A DNA stretch of 64,000 nt, taken from positions 27,733 to 91,732 of the forward strand of contig CAYRYW010000002.1 of assembly GCA_964428725.1 (NCBI GenBank), in the 5' to 3' direction. The position numbers and the translations under genes were made by a program. Of this stretch, positions 22,331-31,718 are shown piece after piece. The number at the start of each line of letters is the position of its first letter. The stretch's first letter is position 1. Under the pieces are notes generated by a model. The model searched no databases and was not told where the DNA came from. It saw only the letters and a program-made list of their open reading frames with translations. This DNA is from an uncultured Dehalococcoidales bacterium. GTDB lineage: Bacteria; Chloroflexota; Dehalococcoidia; E44-bin15.

Positions 22331-25300
22331 TTGATAGTTACGACACGCAAGGGGAGAAAGAAGTCTGTAATAACCAAGGAGGAGCTGGCGGCCCATGCCG
22401 GTGACATGGTTGACGCCCTGACAGACGCAGAGCTAGAGCTGGTGATGGGCCTGATAGACGAAGATCCGGAGATTCAGATAGAGCACCACAAGACGATGCG
22501 CGGGCACTTGTACCACCGAGAGCCTGTCTCTATGGAGCAATTCATAGAGGATCCACATTACCTGGGCGAGTCTTGCTCGACTCTCTACCCAGAGCTTAAG
22601 AAAGATCTCATAGATCTGTTTGATTATCCATTCAGAGAAGTTGTGCTCACAGGCGGAATTGGAGTTGGCAAATGCCAACGAGGGGTGAACGAGCTTTATG
22701 ATCCGGTCATGGGGAGAAGGCTAACTGTAGAAGATGCTGCATCTTTTGGCAAGTACAAAGCGTGCGCCACGTTCAACAAGGATGAGCGGAAGACAGTGAG
22801 TGGAGGGTGCAAAGTATTCGAAAGCGGAAGAAAGAAGGCGGGGGATCTCGTGCTTGGGAGCGGGAAGAAGATTGGACTAACTCCTGATCACCCTGTCTTG
22901 ACACCGTGGGGATACAAGCCAGTCGGAGAGCTTAAGAAGGGGGATCTTGTTGCGACTTCGCGAGAGATGCCCTTACCTGAGATGCCTTTGGCTATTTCTG
23001 ACAATGAGGTCAAGTGGGTGGGCTACATCTTGGCAGACGGCGGTGTGACAACGTCTCGGATTGTCTTCGTAAAGGGTGTTGATGAAATAATCTCAGAGTT
23101 TTGGTCTCTGTCGGAATCGCTTGGCGGGGATGTGAAGGAAGAGGATGTGGATGCTGATGCGCGGAGGGTTCGTGTCCTGGGGCTTGATCGCTTGAGGGAT
23201 AAATTTGATCTCAAACACAAGTCCAAGGACAAGAGAGTTCCGAGTGAGTTCTACGGGCTAGACAATCGCCAGCTTGCCTTGTTGCTGAATCGCATTTGGT
23301 CGTGTGATGGATGGTTCTGTCGCAGGGATAAGAAAAAGGGCAACTGGGAGATTGGAATATCCTTAGCCAGTGAGCCGTTCGTGAGGGATATTCAACAGCT
23401 CTTGCTTCGTTTTGGGATTCACTCTCGGATGCGTCCGCGTGAGATGGGGTACACGCACAACGGAGAGAGGAAGCATAGCGATGCTTGGTCTTTGCAGGTG
23501 CTGGGTAGGGATGAAGTTATTAGGTTCTTGAATTCGATTGGAAACCTCGTAGGCAAGGAAGAAGATTGCGAGACTGCGCGGCGCGAACTTGAGTTCGTAA
23601 AGGGCAACTCGAACGTGGACATTACCCCCATGAACAGAGAGGTGATGACCAGGGTTCGTAAAGAGATCGGGCCGGTGCCCAAGAAGGCGTACTGGCCGCG
23701 TCCGGCGCAGGGCTCGCAAATGGGCCACGGGGTGTTCTTGAGATTCGCTGAGGCGTATGATCTTCCCGAGTGGTGCTCCTGGTGGGGTGGAGTATTCTGG
23801 GATGAGGTGGAATCGTATGAGTGCGGCGATGAGTTAGAGCCTGTGTATGACATCGAGGTTCCTAAGACGAGGAACTTCTCAGTGCACGGGGTTATCGTTC
23901 ACAATACGTTCGTGCTCTCAATAGCCATATGCAGGGTGCTTTACGAGCTGTCTTGCTTAGTGAATCCCCAGAAGACTTTCGGCCTGTCGTCGGGTACGGA
24001 GATGGTTATTCCGTTGATCTCAAAGAACCTTCCGCTGGCGCGTGCTGTCATGAAGACGGCGGTTGACGACAAGATCAAAGAGTCTCCGTATTTCATGAAC
24101 GAGTTCTCTCCGAAGATCTCCAAGGAAGCCACGCTGTTTCCTCATAACATCCGAGTGATCATAGGGTCGTACGGTAGTGAGCGAGTTCTTGGCTCGAACG
24201 TTTTCTGTGTTGGGCTTGATGAGTGCCTAATACTAGAGGCAGGTTTGACAACGGAAAGAAAAGGTGTTAGGCGATCCATGACAGTTGGAGATCTTCTGGA
24301 AATGAGTCCAGAGGACGCTGAAAACTGCAAGGTTGTAGGTTTTGATCATGCGGAGAATAAGCTCAAGGCTGGATGGTGGAGAATCAAGAAGTCCACGGTT
24401 CAAGAGCTTGTTGAGATCAGGACTGCGCTGGGGTCGGTATCGCCGTCGAGAAAACATCCCGTTCTTGTCCAAAGAGGAGACTGGCTTGTTTACGTTCATG
24501 CGGAGGATGTCGTCCCTGGCGATTTTGTTGTCATGGAGGATCGTGATGCCAGCGAAGGGGCAGACTGTAAGCGAAGAGCAGAAGAAAAAACAATCGGAGA
24601 AGATGAAGGGTCGAGAGTTATCGGAGGAGACGAAAGAGAAGATGAGATCTGCGCAAAAGGCGCGGTACGAGAATGGGTACGTCAATCCGATGAAGGGGAA
24701 GACTCAGTCAGAGGAGACGAAGAAGAAAATCAGCGAGGCCCAAAAGGGGAGGAAGTTCTCCGAGGAACATCGGCGGAAGATCGGAGAGGCGAATCGCAGA
24801 AGGAAGATCTCGAAAGAGACGCGGGAGCGAATGAGCGAGGCTCAAAAGAGCAAGGCACCTGCAAGCGAGGAGCACAGACGGAAGATAAGCGAAGCCAATA
24901 CAGGCAGGAAGCATACGGACGAAGCTCGTGCGAACATGAGCAAGGCTCAGAAGGGTCGCGCCCTGTCAGAGGATCACAAAAAGAAGCTGTCAGAGGCGGC
25001 CAAGAAGCGCACAGGAGAGGCGAATCACTTCTACGGAAAGACTCACTCCGAGGAGGCGCGGAAGAAGATGAGAGAGGGTCAGGCGGGTGTACAGCGGAAG
25101 CCTCACTCCGAAGAGACAAAGAGAAAGATGAGCGAGTCTCAAAAGGGGCGCAAGTTTTCCGAGGAGACGAAGGAGAAGATGAGAAATGCTGCGAAGCGTC
25201 GTGCAGCCGATCCAGAGTGGCGAAAGAAGATGAGCGAGTCGTCGAAGAGGGGCTGGGCAGAGGGCACCATTGGCCAGAACATGCCACCCCGGCACGGAGA

Positions 25301-28300
25301 GGCGAACCCTTTCTACGGGAAGAAGCACACGGAGGAAACGAAGGCGCGTCTGAGCGAGGTTGCAAAGGCGAGAGAACCTCGCGTGCATACGGAGGCGTCG
25401 AAGGATGCGATTTCCGAGGGGAACATGCGGGCTATCAAGGACGGGACGAGGACGTACAAGTTCCGTGCGACGTCTCCGGATGGTGGGGTTGTGCCTTGCC
25501 GGACAGAGGCGGAGAAGAGACTAGCCGATCATCTTTGTTCTCAGGACGGGGTTGTTTCTGTTGTCGGCGAAGACAAGATGCCGTTTGTGGAGTACGATTT
25601 CAACGGCCAATCCAGGATAACGGTTGCGGACTTCATGGTAACAGCAAGCGACGGTCGAATCATTATCGTAGAAGGGAAGGCGCAGGGGTCGCTATACGGA
25701 GAGAGAGAGAGGGCTCGGTTTCTTGCTACATGGGAGCACTGCAAGGCGTGCGGGTTCGACATGATTATATCATTCAACCATGCAAGGGACCCCGATCTGT
25801 CTCTCGGTCCATTTGTGACACAGGAATTTGTGGAGATGGTGAAACAGGGGTTTGTTCCCATGTCACTGCTTTCGGACAATCGTGCCACTGGGGTTGCGGC
25901 AAGGCGAACGGGCTTTGGGCATCACGGGAAAAGAGTAGCTGGAGGAGACAGAAAGTATCTGTTCAGCACTGTGTCTCCGGACGGGGTGATCGTCAATTGC
26001 AGGACAAGGAACAGCCTGCGTGTAGCCGATCATCTTTGCTCTCAGAGCGGGGTTGTTTCTGTTGTAGGCGAAGACAAGATGAGTGCTATTTATCACAAGG
26101 TGAATGGAGAGGGGCGCCAGACGGTTGCAGACTTCATGGTTACTCGCAGCGACGGACATATTATTTTTGTGAATGTAGAGAGCAACACGTTTGCAGAGAG
26201 CAAGGGCCTCTGTCATCGTATGAATGCAATGTGGGACCATTGCAGGGCTGTCGGTTGCAGTTTCATGATGGTATTTGCCGATGCGTCCGTGGATCCAAAT
26301 GTGTGGGAGGGTCCGTTTGTCACGGATGCGTTTGTCGAGCGCGTCATGGGCACAGGGGTGATTCGACAAGGATTAATGGCCGATGCCAGAGTTCCTGCGT
26401 TGACGGTGGCGTCTCCGAGCGGGAGCACGATCCATTGCGCGACAGAGAAGGAGATGAGGCTGGCGGAGTGCCTATGTCAGCAAGAGGGCGTGGAGTCCAT
26501 TTCCTCAACAAAGAGGGAGTGCGTGGCGAGGTTCGAGTTCGAGGGGCGGGCGCGAAGGGCTGTGGCGGACTTTATTGTTCTCATGCGGGACGGGAGAGAG
26601 GTGGTTGTCTATTCCATACATGGGACAAACGCGAGGAGCGTATCATCAAGGAGTGCGCTCATGGCTATGTGGGATCACTGCAAAGAGATGGGCATGAGCA
26701 TGTTGCTAGCCCTCAAGGAAGCGAGGAATCCAGATCTGTCCCTTGGTCCGTTCGTGACGCAGGAGTTCGTGGATGGGTATATGCGCGGAGATGCCAAGAG
26801 GAGTGCGCTCATAGACAAAAGGCCAAAGGGAAGGAGACCATCTCCGTTGAAGGGCAGGAAACTTGGTCCTCGCAAGAAAATGACGAACTTGAGTTCGCAG
26901 GAATCCGCCCCGAAAGAACACATGTCGAAGAAATCCCTGTCGGTCTTTGCCTCGCGGAAGTAGTGTCCGTTTCTGCCCTGCCCGCTGAACAAACATATTC
27001 TCTATGCACGGAGCATCAGACGTTCATCGCTGATGGGTTCGTGGTGCATAATACGAACTTCCCGCCGAACCGTAAGAGCCAGCAGATCACTACAGCTATG
27101 GGCCAGAAGAAGACAAAGGCTCACTTTGATATTGTGGAGAAGGTCTACCGGAACTTGGTCCGGCGAATAAAGTCCAGGTTCCAGGTTGCAGGCGGGGATT
27201 TCCCTGGGATGATCATCTTGGCTTCTTCGGCTGCTACCCTGGACAGTTTCACTGAGCGGAAAATCCGGGAGAGCAGGCTTGATTCCTCTGTCTTCGTCCG
27301 AGATCACACTCAGTGGACGGCCAAGCCTGGGTCTAACTTCTGCGGGGAGAAGTTCTGGGTTCTGTGTTCGGCGTCCTCTATGCGCTCTAGGATAATCGGA
27401 GACGATGAAGTGAAGCACTTCACCGACGAGTGGCTGGAGGAGAACGATTCTTTTTTGATCGACATTCCGGTTGAGTACAAGTCGGACTTCGAGACAGACA
27501 TTGAGAATGCACTAAGGGACCTTGCTGGTATATCTACTCAGGCTATATCGATTTATATCCAGAGGCCCGACGCGGTGGACGCGTGTGTGAGCGAAGAGAT
27601 GGAGCATCCGTTTACTGCGTATGAGTGGACATCCGGGCAGGCCGGGGCGTTCAAGTGGAACATTCTGTGTAACATGTTCGAGCGTCGGCTGCCTGGCGGA
27701 TACACGGAGACAGCGTGGTCCCCCAAGATTAATCCTTCGAAGATGAGATGGTGTCACATTGATACATCTCTCTCGGGGGACTGTACGGGTTTCTGTGTTG
27801 GTCATATAGACAAGTGGGTTGAGGTAGTAAGGCGAGACGGGGACGGGGTTCGTTACACGGACCTGGCACCCTCTTACGTCATTGACGTGATGTTGCGAGT
27901 GAACCCACCGGCTGGAGAGCAAATCTACATGCCGGACTTGCGTCGTTTCATTTACGAACTACAGGCACATGGTTATCAGTTCCTTGGGTTTTCGTCGGAC
28001 ACATACCAGTCGGCGGAGATGCACCAGCAAGTAAAGAGAAGGGGGATTTCTACCCATATCATATCGACGGATACGTCCACGGATCCTTACGATGAGCTGA
28101 AGATGGCGATGTACGAGAACCGGATTACGTACTATCATTATCAGCCATTTATTGAGGAAATCAAAGACTTGGAATATGATCGCAACGTGGGCAAGATCGA
28201 TCATCAGCAGGCCGGGTGTTTTGTCGGAGAGACGCGGATTCCTCTTCTGGATGGAAGCTGCCCTATGATCTCAGAGTTGGATGGGGTGGATACGTGGGTG

Positions 28301-28870
28301 TACTCCTGTACAGAGGGTGGTCGCATTGTTCCGGGCCGAGCAAGGGGTCGATTAACGAAAGAGGTGACCGAGCTTGTGGATGTGGTTCTGGACAGCGGGG
28401 CTGTCGAGAGGTGTACGCATGAGCACCTTTGGATGTTGAGGGACGGGACGTACAAGAAGGCATGCGACTTGGATCCTGGCATTGACCGTTTGATGCCGAT
28501 TGATTTGAATTCTTTTCCGGTTGAGCACAAGGTCAGGCATGTAACTCCTGTTCGCCTTGATAAGCCGGTGGCTGTGTATGACTTAGAGGTTGAGGAGTAT
28601 TCCAACTTCTCGCTTTCTTCTGGAGTGTTCGTCCACAACTCCAAAGACGTTAGTGACGCAGTAGCGGGTGTGGTGTATGGTTTGATGAAGACATCGACCA
28701 AAATCCCTGCGATTGTGGGCGATAGTAAAAGTGCCGCTGTTGAAAACGAATACGACTGGGTCTCACCTATGATCCAGACGGACGGCATAAGCGCCGAAGA
28801 GCTAAGGGACATGAAGGACGCGGGAGATACAGACGTGTCGGAGTATGTCCCTATTGTGTTTGGAGACTGA
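22331..28870 (+). CDS. terL: terminase large subunit precursor interrupted by three inteins
   Basis: 2179-aa stop-free frame. Exteins: Walker A GGIGVGK|T, Walker [10 protein letters not shown]-terminal RNase-H-like nuclease ([21 protein letters not shown]|[10 protein letters not shown]). TTG start assumed and uncertain. Confidence 0.8.
22673..23905 (+). mobile_element. TerL intein 1 (411 aa) in P-loop, LAGLIDADG homing endonuclease domain
   Basis: Starts Cys after GVGK, block [18 protein letters not shown] motifs GYILADGG and [10 protein letters not shown], ends VYDIEV...[11 protein letters not shown]|T. Confidence 0.8.
23581..23597 (+). repeat. palindromic motif copy 7/12, inside intein-1 endonuclease coding region
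   Basis: GCGCGAACTTGAGTTCG encodes ARRELEFV in frame. Confidence 0.6.
24546..26963 (+). CDS. homing-endonuclease-like protein nested in intein 2 in the +1 frame, with own RBS
   Basis: GGAGGA 5 nt before ATG 24546. About 9 tandem NUMOD3 repeats ([22 protein letters not shown]). Then 3 tandem ~140-aa PD-(D/E)xK-like domains, first intact (E.R...VADFMV...IVEGK), two degenerate. Confidence 0.7.
26883..26898 (+). repeat. palindromic motif copy 8/12, at 3' end of nested endonuclease gene
   Basis: ACGAACTTGAGTTCGC; read as NDELEFAG in terminase frame and MTNLSSQ in endonuclease frame. Confidence 0.6.
28217..28639 (+). mobile_element. TerL intein 3 (141-aa mini-intein) in nuclease active-site motif
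   Basis: [13 protein letters not shown]..., block [10 protein letters not shown], ends [24 protein letters not shown]|S. Confidence 0.75.
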
Positions 28871-28871
28871 T

Positions 28872-31718
28872 ATGGGATTTACCGAACTAGTCAAAGGGCT
28901 CTTCAAGAGGGACAGGGATGTCCAGGCAGCAGCTATTGCCAAGGGTACGGCGATTGCTACCAACGTCTCTGTTGACAGTATGGATCCGAGTAGCGGGACA
29001 GAGGGCGTCAATGCCCTTCAGAGCCAGCTAGCCATCGAGCAAGATCTGATTTCTCGTTACATAGATTACGAGAATATGGACGACTATGTTGAAACCAGCG
29101 CAGCTCTAACGGTGTTCGCGGATGACTCTACTATTCCAGATACCCTCCATAGGAAGACCGTGTGGGCTACGTCGGAGGATCGGCTCGTTCGCGATCTTCT
29201 GAACGACATGCTTCACAGGATGATCCGTATCGAGGAGGACGCCTGGGTCACAGTTAGGAGCTTGGCAAAGTACGGGAACTTGTACGGGGAGGTTCTGACC
29301 ACAAAGGGCGGGGTAATAGGTATCAACTGGCTTCCCGCACCGTCGATACGTAGAATAATAAACAGCAAAGGCGTCCTTCTTGGGTTCATCCAAGATGTGT
29401 CTGGGCAGTTCAACTACGATGCGGGGGCGCTTGTAGAGGCTCTAGAGGCTGGCAAGAAGCCCATTCCTGAAAACGAGAACAACTCTGGGATTACCTTCTT
29501 CTACCCTTGGGAGATGGTCCATTGGCGGCTGCGCTCCAAGCGGCTTCGCTCTCCTTACGGGTACGGTGTTCTAGACAGTTCACGGTGGATCTGGAAGCGT
29601 CTCCAGTTGATGGAGGACACAGCCCTGGTTCAAAAGCTGACAAGGGCTCCGGGTCGGTATGCGTTCTACGTGGATACCGGAGACTTGCCGCCTAAAGAAG
29701 CGGTGGCTCTTGTCCGCAAGGTTAAGAGCGGATTCAAGAAGAAGCGTCTGATCGATCCGAGCACAGGCCAGCTGGATCTTCGCAATAACCCGCTGTGCCT
29801 AGCGGGTGACACGGAAGTTCCTCTCCTTGATGGGAGTAAAAAAACGATAGTCGAGATGGCGGAAGCGTTCGACAGGGGCGAGGAGCAGTGGGTTTACGGC
29901 GTTGACAGGAAAAATAACAGCAAGATGGTTCCTGGCAAGGTTGTGTGGGCAGGTCAGACACGTAAAGACGCTGAGCTAGTGCGCGTTACATTAGATAATG
30001 GCGAGTCTTTCAGGGTTACTCCTGATCATAAGTGCATATTGAGAAGCGGAGATCTGAAGGATGCCCAGGACTTGGTTCCTGGCGAATCCTTGATGCCGTT
30101 GCGTAGGACAATCTCTTCTTTTGAGAAGGGAGACACGATGGACGGGTATGAGAAGGTCTACGATCCGTCCAGCAAGAAATATGTGTATACGCACAGGATG
30201 GTTGTGCGGGAACTAGGGATGAAGGAAAAAGGCAAGCTCACTCATCACAACGCAGGGAAGCTGAATAACAATCCTAGTTGCCTTGAGAGCATGACATGGA
30301 GAGAGCACTCGGAGCATCATTGTAAACTGGGGCAAATGGGCGGTGCTAAACTCAGAGAGCTTCGCAAGACGGATAAAGCTCTGGATCAAAAGTTACGAGA
30401 TGCAGCGTCGAGGACGCTTAAAGAGCGTCACGCTGATCCTGAGTGGAAAAAGAGGAATGCTGAGGCAGTGCGTCGGAGTAACATCGAGCGTGATAGTGGT
30501 AGGTACATCCGTGCCTATAACGATTCTGACAAGCATGTAGAAGACAACGCGCAGAGAAGCTCCGCCATGAAGGCGTTCTGGACCGATGATGCCAGGTCTG
30601 AGTATTCGGAAACTAGGACGATCAGCTACTCGGATGTCTTCATTTCGGCGCTAGAGGAATTCGTCAGGAGCAACCCTGGGTCGAGCGCAGACGATGTGGC
30701 AGACTTCGTGTCTAGCGATTCTGTTGCTCTAGGTCTTCTCAATGAGGGAAGTTGCCGCGTGATAAAGAAAGCCCATCGTCATTTGCTTTTAAAGGCGTAT
30801 AGGGCGCATGGCTATTCTAACTTCAGCGAGTTCAAGGAATCTGCGTGTTCCTACAATCACAAAGTTGTGTCTGTTGAGCGTCTTTCCGAGAGAGAGGACA
30901 CGTATACGCTGACTGTTGACTCGTGTCACAACTTTGGCCTTTCTTCTGGGGTTGTAGTTTGCAACTCGCCATCCGAAGATTTTTGGATTCCTACCCGTGG
31001 AGGGAAAGATTCCACAAGGATCGAAGTCATCTCTGGGCCAGATGTTCAGATGATGGACGACGTGGAATACTTCCAAGGCAAGCTGGTTACATCGACGACG
31101 GTTCCGAGGCGCTTCATGGGTCTTGGGGATCCTGGTGACTCTACGAACATGATGGCGTCCCAGGATGACGTGAGATTTGCCCGTGCCTGTATGAGGCTCC
31201 AGCGTGAGTACGTGCAGGGGCTTGAGAAGGTTGCCCGTATACATCTCGCGGCGTTGAACATCGATCCCGATTCTGTGCCTTGGCAAATCAAGATGACGGT
31301 TCCGTCTGCGATCTTCGAGATGCAGCAGATTGAGGTTATGAATGCCCAAGCTGGGCTGGCGTCTTCGCTGTCTGATTACATGAGCAAGCCTTGGATTCTC
31401 CAACGCGTGTTCAACTTCACGAGAGACGATGCCCAGGCTATGATCCAGGCGAAACGCGATGAGGAGTCCGGGGATGTTGTCCGGGAAGCCGAAGCGCAAG
31501 CGAAGGTCATGAAGTTATTCCCCGAGCTTGAGGGCGCACTCGACGACAAAGACGGGGGAGGGAAAGAAGAAAGCGTTTCCCCTAAGAAGGCACCTATAGC
31601 GGAGAACGAGGACAGGAGGCTTCTTCGCTCCTTGAGCAAGAAGGCTAACGCGATTGAGCGTTCTGTCACTCGGATCAATAAAATGTCACGGATCAACGGG
31701 TCCGGAAAGAGGAGTTAG
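28872..31718 (+). CDS. portal protein (T4 gp20-like position) precursor with one intein
   Basis: GGAG SD 7 nt before ATG, 1 nt after TerL stop; ~950 aa follows TerL; extein resumes SPSEDFWIPTRGGKDS... Confidence 0.65.
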   Translation: MGFTELVKGLFKRDRDVQAAAIAKGTAIATNVSVDSMDPSSGTEGVNALQSQLAIEQDLISRYIDYENMDDYVETSAALTVFADDSTIPDTLHRKTVWATSEDRLVRDLLNDMLHRMIRIEEDAWVTVRSLAKYGNLYGEVLTTKGGVIGINWLPAPSIRRIINSKGVLLGFIQDVSGQFNYDAGALVEALEAGKKPIPENENNSGITFFYPWEMVHWRLRSKRLRSPYGYGVLDSSRWIWKRLQLMEDTALVQKLTRAPGRYAFYVDTGDLPPKEAVALVRKVKSGFKKKRLIDPSTGQLDLRNNPLCLAGDTEVPLLDGSKKTIVEMAEAFDRGEEQWVYGVDRKNNSKMVPGKVVWAGQTRKDAELVRVTLDNGESFRVTPDHKCILRSGDLKDAQDLVPGESLMPLRRTISSFEKGDTMDGYEKVYDPSSKKYVYTHRMVVRELGMKEKGKLTHHNAGKLNNNPSCLESMTWREHSEHHCKLGQMGGAKLRELRKTDKALDQKLRDAASRTLKERHADPEWKKRNAEAVRRSNIERDSGRYIRAYNDSDKHVEDNAQRSSAMKAFWTDDARSEYSETRTISYSDVFISALEEFVRSNPGSSADDVADFVSSDSVALGLLNEGSCRVIKKAHRHLLLKAYRAHGYSNFSEFKESACSYNHKVVSVERLSEREDTYTLTVDSCHNFGLSSGVVVCNSPSEDFWIPTRGGKDSTRIEVISGPDVQMMDDVEYFQGKLVTSTTVPRRFMGLGDPGDSTNMMASQDDVRFARACMRLQREYVQGLEKVARIHLAALNIDPDSVPWQIKMTVPSAIFEMQQIEVMNAQAGLASSLSDYMSKPWILQRVFNFTRDDAQAMIQAKRDEESGDVVREAEAQAKVMKLFPELEGALDDKDGGGKEESVSPKKAPIAENEDRRLLRSLSKKANAIERSVTRINKMSRINGSGKRS
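29796..30965 (+). mobile_element. portal intein (390 aa) with HNH endonuclease domain
   Basis: CLAGDTEVPLLDG (block A), TPDHKCIL (block B), HNH region KLTHHNAGKLNNNPSCLESMTWREHSEHH, C-term CHNFGLSSGVVVCN|S (penultimate Cys not His). Confidence 0.7.

Follow-up and report, generated by a model that had tools for sequence, protein, structure and literature searches.

The stretch analysed here, called the window below, comprises 64,000 nucleotides (nt) of contig CAYRYW010000002.1 from an uncultured Dehalococcoidales assembly. It contains a gene for a phage terminase large subunit (TerL) with three inteins, the second of which (intein 2) harbors a complete homing-endonuclease gene in a different reading frame. 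An earlier note on this DNA had described a stand-alone endonuclease with three tandem repeats at 25390-26800. These coordinates do cover the repeats, but they miss the remainder of the gene and its host element, and the gene does not stand alone: it is nested out of frame in the TerL intein, with the terminase frame open over all 805 overlapped codons. We regard this anatomy as practically certain. The open reading frames (ORFs) and domains of the nested locus are listed below, in positions of the window and with protein lengths in amino acids (aa).

22331..28870, + strand: TerL precursor ORF, 2179 aa, three inteins; predicted spliced product of 685 aa
24224..27052, + strand: intein 2, 943 aa in the TerL frame, located in Walker B (...GLDE|TNFPP...)
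24224..24545, + strand: N-terminal splicing domain of intein 2, 107 aa, block B SRKHPVLV
24535..24540, + strand: Shine-Dalgarno (SD)-like GGAGGA, 5 nt upstream of the endonuclease ATG
24546..26963, + strand: homing-endonuclease gene, 805 aa, +1 frame relative to TerL, entirely within intein 2
24570..25373, + strand: NUMOD3-type helical DNA-binding array of about 12 units (Pfam NUMOD3, motif count, PHROG families)
25452..25883, + strand: R1 (residues 303-446), predicted TnsA-like PD-(D/E)xK domain with intact catalytic residues
25884..25952, + strand: R1-R2 linker, predicted to be disordered (predicted local distance difference test, pLDDT, below 50)
25953..26390, + strand: R2 (residues 470-615), degenerate copy, fold retained according to the model
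26391..26822, + strand: R3 (residues 616-759), degenerate copy, fold likewise predicted to be retained
26823..26963, + strand: basic C-terminal tail and stop codon of the endonuclease, overlapping the start of the C-terminal splicing domain
26885..27052, + strand: C-terminal splicing domain of intein 2, about 55 aa, identity between loci 0.45-0.80 in the intein frame

Intein 2 starts with Cys and ends with His-Asn, followed by Thr at position +1 (C|LILEAG..., ...SRKHPVLV..., ...FVVHN|T). In an alignment of nine loci, its residues C1, D41, H42, H78 and P79 are invariant. The Pfam Intein_splicing profile matches the joined N- and C-terminal parts with an expectation value (E) of 3e-6 and 27.5 bits, which is below the cut-off of 35.8. 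Judged by these motifs, it is probably a class-1-type intein, for which splicing is predicted, in keeping with a host protein, TerL, that is essential and with a frame that has stayed open across the insert.

The endonuclease is held by an ORF at 24342..26963 (+), in which the ATG at 24546 is the likely start and yields a protein of 805 aa. A database protein from another contig (P0001) has the identical 805 aa and was independently called with the same start. In all ten loci examined, an SD-like element (similar to GGAGG, GGAGA or AGAGG) is located 5-8 nt before the conserved ATG, and the ten N-termini all read M-(P/A)-K-(K/G). Pfam NUMOD3 (PF07460) matches the N-terminal approximately 300 residues in six stretches (E 1.3e-43, 147 bits against a cut-off of 20.4). 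By motif, we counted 12 units of about 17 aa with the consensus SEE(T/H)(K/R)xK(M/I)SxAxKG(R/K); at the DNA level they form repeat families D1-D4, and the array falls in the PHROG homing-endonuclease families 314 and 655. The NUMOD3 array had thus been recognized correctly beforehand, while the number of about nine modules given for it is either an undercount of the short units or an overcount of the 37-aa Pfam units. The C-terminal tail has a sequence in common with the proteins P0002 and P0003. Long antisense ORFs in 24708-26992 were rejected as a by-product of purine richness in the coding strand.

What stands out most about the locus is the nesting of the endonuclease gene within an open terminase frame. 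Over the 805 overlapped codons this frame contains no stop, whereas 43±4.7 are expected (minimum 25) from 5000 synonymous-codon shuffles in which the endonuclease protein was preserved. The third frame contains 40 stops over the same overlap, against 36.7 expected. None of the 269 endonuclease codons that precede a codon beginning with AA, AG or GA ends in T, as compared with 154 of the 536 other codons. The lack of stops together with the lack of T-ending codons at the positions at risk is direct evidence that selection keeps the terminase frame readable through the endonuclease gene. Nine further loci also have no terminase-frame stops (3-25 expected), and in their control frame the stops are as numerous as expected.

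The substitutions between loci are found mostly at position 3 of the endonuclease codons. Between loci, amino-acid identity across the overlap reaches 0.47-0.73 when the endonuclease frame is translated, as against only 0.21-0.52 for the intein frame, and the intein frame itself is better conserved in the splicing domains (0.41-0.80) than in the middle (0.32-0.49). These alignments show purifying selection, which acts on the endonuclease frame in the central part of the intein and on that of the terminase in both splicing domains, so that selection switches frame twice along the intein. In the C-terminal tail, the substitutions between two closely related loci (L011 and L025) alter the endonuclease frame more than the intein frame. 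The terminase-frame product of the overlap has 51 Cys among its 805 residues, and 39% of it consists of Gly, Arg and Glu. It looks like a spacer rather than a domain and is presumably disordered. The overlap, at 2.4 kb and 805 codons, provides a clean case from nature of very long dual coding in which the absence of stops is the sole detectable constraint on one frame. This makes it useful for the study of overlapping-gene evolution, and it is also a warning to annotators, as gene callers report just one of the two overlapping ORFs at such loci.

A model of R1, built by AlphaFold2 (AF2) with six homologous domains, reached a pLDDT of 93.5 and a predicted template modelling score (pTM) of 0.87. 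When it was compared with solved structures by Foldseek, the best match was Tn7 TnsA (1t0f, 1f1z; E 8e-5, template modelling score 0.61, probability 1.00), followed by Hjc, Cas4-family nucleases, RecU and restriction enzymes, in good agreement with the restriction-endonuclease-like fold proposed in the earlier note. Among the viral models of BFVD, R1 resembled phage proteins named 'endonuclease', 'TnsA endonuclease N-terminal domain-containing', 'NUMOD3' and 'putative homing endonuclease'.

On the sequence side, a search of 1.84 billion representatives with a profile of the domain yielded 12 close clusters (E 1e-22 to 3e-60), with 13 reaching E 1e-10, and about 70 weak relatives besides these. 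The weak relatives that were tested proved to be Pfam Tn7_TnsA-like_N proteins (33-72 bits), some of them with helix-turn-helix or NUMOD3 modules; in P0026, NUMOD3 is joined to TnsA-like_N. A joint alignment of 18 close and distant sequences has E21, D60, G68 and K76 as its sole invariant columns, and E74 is conserved in at least 90%. The profile of close and distant sequences matches solved TnsA proteins at E 2e-9 and 8e-6 and T7 endonuclease I at 5e-4, and its E, D and ExK columns align with those of PseTnsA. A profile made from the seven close domains alone found nothing meaningful among the PDB sequences, so that the link to TnsA by sequence is owed to the distant relatives added to the profile. 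Taken together, the predicted fold, the structural matches, the profile links and the catalytic columns indicate that the repeat domain is a TnsA-like PD-(D/E)xK nuclease.

Only R1 has the complete catalytic tetrad, consisting of E323 (25512-14), D362 (25629-31), E376 (25671-73) and K378 (25677-79) in the strings EAEK, VADFMV and VEGK. At the corresponding positions, R2 has S490, D529, N543 and E545, and R3 has E636, D675, Y689 and I691. The earlier description of one intact and two decayed units therefore stands. Degeneration of the site is also seen in a single-domain member of the family from the representative library (P0014, 237 aa), in which D is replaced by N and ExK by I-E-S and whose C-terminal extension is unrelated; this endonuclease may have been inactivated or taken on another purpose.

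The three repeats are homologous to one another, as had been claimed before. A self-BLAST of the whole protein gave the identity match only, and the repeats were therefore compared pairwise by BLASTP: R1 and R2 share 48% identity (E 9e-43), R1 and R3 41% (7e-39), and R2 and R3 33% (3e-26), similarities that chance cannot explain. At the DNA level, the copies are 45-57% identical. A patch of 59 nt (25522-25580 in R1, 26023-26081 in R2) stands out with 93% identity in a pair that is otherwise 57% identical. It encodes a sequence opening with ADHLCSQ(D/S) and suggests a gene-conversion tract between the tandem copies.

All relatives have one nuclease domain, except L011 and L025, which have two; there, the first domain is intact and the second carries D to G and K to E replacements. 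The layout of one active domain with dead domains downstream has thus been seen at least twice, with three copies here and two in L011/L025. In a neighbor-joining tree, R1 clusters with the sole domain of L002, R2 and R3 lie together on long branches, and the second domain of L011 falls within the L011-like clade. According to this placement, the two multiplications are probably independent, and each seems to have kept the N-terminal copy as the active one. The triplication does make the architecture unusual, as the earlier note had stated, but the layout of NUMOD3 with a single TnsA-like domain occurs in other phage proteins. A search for homologs with the same three repeats found only the identical protein among 5.8 billion, and no orthologs of R2-R3 were present in the metagenome contigs searched.

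R2 retains 25 of 30 conserved non-catalytic positions and R3 19 of 30, while of the four catalytic positions they keep one and two, respectively. In an AF2 model of all three domains, both copies show the same order of secondary structures as R1, although the alignment rows cover R1 only. Their 290 codons contain no stop in the endonuclease frame, as compared with 17 in the unconstrained frame. The ratio of nonsynonymous to synonymous substitution rates (dN/dS) between the paralogous copies is 0.25-0.44, with dS near saturation and dN/dS distorted by the overlapping frame. We have a choice between two views of these domains. In the one that we favor, without considering it proven, R2 and R3 are maintained non-catalytic domains rather than dead weight. 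Catalysis would have been lost, the fold and the open frame kept, and the copies would most likely serve as DNA-binding or positioning modules tethered to R1, although we put this function forward only tentatively.

The other view is that R2 and R3 are functionless duplicates in decay, tolerated because an intein loop may be of any length, and that the enzyme works like its single-domain relatives. Nearly the whole family, with the exception of L011/L025, manages with one domain; R3 has lost 11 of the 30 conserved non-catalytic positions; the branches of both copies are long; and intein length at the Walker B site ranges from 180 to 943 aa. The three-domain model also predicts no confident packing between the domains (pTM 0.37, with alignment rows over R1 only). 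It is difficult to reconcile with this view that the frame of both copies has stayed open, that dN/dS between the paralogs is low within the limits given above, and that a fold is predicted for both without any alignment rows over them. The active-first, dead-downstream pattern arose a second time in L011/L025, and the 59-nt patch suggests ongoing gene conversion, not abandonment. Overall, decay appears somewhat unlikely to us. Some points count against maintained domains as well: the low pTM and the lack of packing, the saturated and distorted dN/dS, and the fact that the three-domain form is a singleton, so that selection on R2 and R3 between orthologs is not measurable. L011 and L025, which come from two samples, differ by 10 nt, too few to inform on selection on the degenerate copy.

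The earlier note had seen in the repeats a pseudo-dimer or pseudo-trimer. A fixed assembly of this kind is not borne out by the three-domain model, given its low pTM and linkers (model residues 143-167 and 305-316) with pLDDT below 50, although a low pTM carries little weight with an alignment that covers R1 only; tethered accessory domains fit the prediction better than a pseudo-trimer. We may speculate further that tandem copying of a TnsA-like domain, followed by silencing of the downstream copies, is an adaptive and recurrent route from a monomeric nicking-type enzyme to a single-chain, asymmetric, multi-domain homing endonuclease, a generalization that we hold to be doubtful at present. 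If true, it would be the PD-(D/E)xK counterpart of the path taken by LAGLIDADG enzymes from homodimer to single-chain pseudo-dimer. Each added domain would in addition have to stay free of stops in the terminase frame within the 805-codon overlap. The arrangement of one active and N inactive copies could serve as a model for how nucleases with a single active site gain specificity or strand coordination.

The same nesting was found in about 13 independently assembled contigs of uncultured phages. The related sequences with this arrangement are ten viral-contig loci (L004-L011, L031 and others), two short ENA contigs (L002, L003) and four metagenome contigs (L020, L022, L025, L027). All of them have a NUMOD3 and TnsA-like gene that is placed in frame +1 of the same intein, and in all but L027 this intein can be assigned to the same TerL site. 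This metagenome contig of 1002 nt ends inside the intein and reads VVHN|CNF, with Cys at +1 and a different downstream extein sequence; its intein may reside in another site or host gene.

Seven phage contigs (L012-L018) carry intein-free alleles, in which GLDE|TNFPP is uninterrupted and the TerL segment is 77-79% identical. The coding sequence of the empty site in L012 is TCGAACGTTTTTGCATGCGGGCTGGACGAG|ACGAACTTCCCGCCGACCCGCCGGTCCCAG. Homologous mini-inteins without an endonuclease are present at the same TerL site in L034 (190 aa) and L030 (180 aa). In the +1 frame of L034, the start of the endonuclease (MA..) is fused to its C-terminal end (..ESVRRHRV..TVD..), corresponding to its last approximately 40 codons, which by its sequence is a deletion scar. 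The splicing domain of L034 hardly differs from the one in L011, the locus with two domains. Empty, occupied and endonuclease-less alleles at one site are what the homing cycle predicts and point to intein 2 and its endonuclease as a homing element; all three stages of the cycle would then be visible at a single site. No relatives of the nuclease domain were found in 185,579 species genomes, and a tblastn search of cultured-phage records with the domain gave no match.

A further single-domain relative with a different N-terminus is encoded on an ENA contig (L001, positions 1-1635, protein P0002). Its terminase frame has many stops upstream of position 432 and is open from there into the C-terminal splicing domain and the extein. 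This contig is either a chimeric assembly or a split ('fractured') terminase gene, the C-terminal half of which overlaps the endonuclease gene.

Our overall explanation, a homing endonuclease encoded out of frame that is nested in a TerL intein and homes via the empty allele, seems quite probable to us. Ribosomes would translate the TerL precursor of 2179 aa straight through the endonuclease gene, and the loop rich in Gly, Arg, Glu and Cys, which is presumably disordered, would be removed with the intein by protein splicing. The endonuclease would be translated separately from its own SD element and ATG. Its approximately 12 NUMOD3 helices would bind the intein-less allele around the DNA coding for GLDE|TNFPP, where R1, as the sole intact domain (E323, D362, E376-x-K378), would cut. 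Recombinational repair during co-infection could then transfer the intein, endonuclease included, to the empty allele. Having a single active site in each chain, the enzyme might act by nicking, by sequential cuts of both strands or by dimerization on the DNA, and R2 and R3 may anchor or orient R1. For this homing mechanism as such, our confidence is slightly lower, and we call it likely.

Some observations speak against this explanation. With only one active site, a chain is unable to produce a double-strand break on its own, and a loop of 805 residues with 51 Cys might impair splicing. Pfam PF08722 (TnsA-like) scores the whole protein at only 19 bits (E 0.002), below the gathering score of 26.5; R1 alone reaches 14.3 bits, also below that score, and R2 and R3 have no match. 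Assignment to the TnsA-like family consequently draws on the fold and on profile links of a transitive kind. That the precursor is spliced, that the endonuclease is translated by itself and cleaves, and where its target lies, are all deduced from sequence.

It is also conceivable that the element is immobile, with an endonuclease that is inactive or co-opted and an intein that has merely become fixed in the phage lineage. Consistent with this, the three-domain form is a singleton, and the mini-inteins demonstrate loss of the endonuclease at this very site. Yet R1 has kept every residue that is invariant or nearly so across the TnsA-like relatives, the start signal is conserved, and the endonuclease frame is under purifying selection across loci. 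Moreover, empty sites with 77-79% identity coexist in similar phages, as expected from an active homing cycle. We thus consider immobility improbable.

SD-like elements can stimulate frameshifting, and one of them lies just upstream of the frame junction. The endonuclease might thus be reached by a programmed +1 ribosomal frameshift, yielding a fusion of extein, N-terminal intein part and endonuclease. This is very hard to bring in line with an ATG that is conserved at a fixed SD spacing in ten out of ten loci, with proteins starting M-(P/A)-K-(K/G), or with a terminase frame that is stop-free over the whole overlap, a requirement that exists only with ribosomes reading through. A slippery or stalling site was not evident, though no search aimed at one was made. 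Errors of sequencing or assembly, be it a frameshift that disguises an ordinary in-frame enzyme or a repeat that was collapsed or expanded, can be dismissed almost entirely as the source of the out-of-frame layout or the triplication, since the same frame relation recurs in about 13 independently assembled contigs from different samples, the identical 805-aa protein is present on another contig, the copies at 45-57% DNA identity are beyond what an assembler could create, and two compensating frameshift errors would be required.

The spliced TerL is about 32% identical, over 89% of its length, to annotated TerL proteins of Vibrio, Gordonia and Streptomyces phages, and the TerL of the window is less than 60% identical to that of any cultured phage. 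Its two other inteins are located as follows.

22673..23905, + strand: intein 1, 411 aa, in the P-loop (GVGK|T), with an in-frame LAGLIDADG endonuclease (Pfam Intein_splicing and LAGLIDADG_3)
28217..28639, + strand: intein 3, a mini-intein of 141 aa at HQQAG|SKD in the TerL nuclease domain

Intein 1, with its ordinary in-frame LAGLIDADG enzyme, is an internal contrast to the out-of-frame endonuclease of intein 2. A further intein of 390 aa (29796-30965, C|LAGDTEV ... VVVCN|S) is found in the adjacent T4-like portal gene (28845-31718; Pfam Portal_T4). Its in-frame insert has no Pfam nuclease match; His-rich, HNH-like strings can be seen by eye. The structural module of the window is T4-like, with Gp20 portal, prohead protease, Gp23 capsid, sheath and gp19 tube proteins. 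Over the whole window (1-64000), the two strands differ strongly and uniformly, with a guanine-cytosine skew between +0.1 and +0.3 in almost all 1-kb bins, and all large ORFs lie on the + strand. No tRNA genes were found in the 64,000 nt.

There are published, though rare, cases of inteins that contain an endonuclease gene out of frame or in antisense. An out-of-frame endonuclease was described for a cyanobacterial dnaX intein (2026, bioRxiv 10.64898/2026.09.14.751524, citing Gorbalenya 1998), and an endonuclease VII-like gene occupies a different frame in actinophage inteins (Gosselin et al. 2025, bioRxiv 10.1101/2025.01.02.630785). The out-of-frame insertion of an HNH gene in a phage methylase is a related case (bioRxiv 10.64898/2026.09.14.751524). 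Intein 2 agrees with the definition of an out-of-frame intein, as the endonuclease ORF lies in another frame between the splicing domains and the intein frame is uninterrupted. It resembles the dnaX and actinophage inteins in its open intein frame (predicted to be disordered there), in the endonuclease's own SD element and in the selection on the endonuclease frame. Terminase large subunits are among the hosts of those inteins too. We also count as a likeness the origin inferred for them, in which a mini-intein was invaded by a free-standing endonuclease gene. Intein 2 differs from them in having a NUMOD3 and TnsA-like PD-(D/E)xK enzyme instead of a LAGLIDADG or endonuclease VII-like one, in its 805-codon overlap and triplicated nuclease domain, and in its hosts, which are uncultured myovirus-type phages and not cyanobacteria or actinophages. 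The class is thereby extended to a new nuclease type and a new phage group.

Fractured genes, in which a Vsr-like endonuclease gene lies between the halves of a split intein (Dassa et al. 2009, PMC2677866), are similar in that an endonuclease gene of free-standing type is placed between intein halves in a phage or environmental host gene. In that system, however, the host gene consists of two ORFs whose products are spliced in trans, whereas the TerL frame is continuous. A split intein or fractured gene was rejected for our locus, as a single ORF of 2179 aa runs through the region.

Six families of homing endonucleases have been characterized; within this set, the PD-(D/E)xK fold is that of I-Ssp6803I and of I-Bth0305I, which is Vsr-like. 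Our full-text literature searches found no paper on NUMOD3-TnsA-like homing endonucleases, and the loci described here point to a TnsA-like family that, as far as these searches show, is without biochemical characterization. TnsA itself (1f1z, 1t0f; PF08722) is the best structural match and has the same E...D...(E/Q)xK catalytic layout. Both have a monomeric PD-(D/E)xK domain, and TnsA cuts one strand and relies on partners. The endonuclease of intein 2 lacks the C-terminal domain of TnsA, TnsB/TnsC partners and a transposon context, and it is fused to NUMOD3 repeats. Its array also matches those of free-standing phage homing endonucleases, namely annotated HNH, GIY-YIG and Seg-like enzymes of cultured phages, and its nuclease fold is shared by the BFVD phage proteins, some of which are named NUMOD3 or putative homing endonuclease. 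In contrast to our enzyme, the phage NUMOD3 and TnsA-like proteins are free-standing and have a single nuclease domain.

For extra copies that do not cut, I-Ssp6803I offers a functional analogy, being a homing endonuclease with a restriction-enzyme fold in whose tetramer only one pair of subunits touches the DNA, the other pair being structural (PMC3384342). Unlike our enzyme, it is intron-encoded and Hjc/PvuII-like, assembles as a homotetramer from short chains, and has neither NUMOD3 modules nor a tandem fusion. The closest precedent for the inactive copies is Sau3AI, a monomeric type IIE restriction enzyme with two PD-(D/E)xK domains; its N-terminal domain is catalytic, and the inactive one acts as an effector or DNA-binding domain (PMC5766183). 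As in the 805-aa protein, one chain holds several domains and only the N-terminal center is intact; Sau3AI differs in belonging to the MutH-like subfamily, in having two domains rather than three and in being a restriction enzyme that is not intein-borne. Out-of-frame intein endonucleases and inactive duplicates of PD-(D/E)xK domains were thus already known. What the TerL locus adds to them is the type of nuclease in an intein with an out-of-frame endonuclease, the overlap of 805 codons, and the tandem array in which two inactive domains follow an active one.

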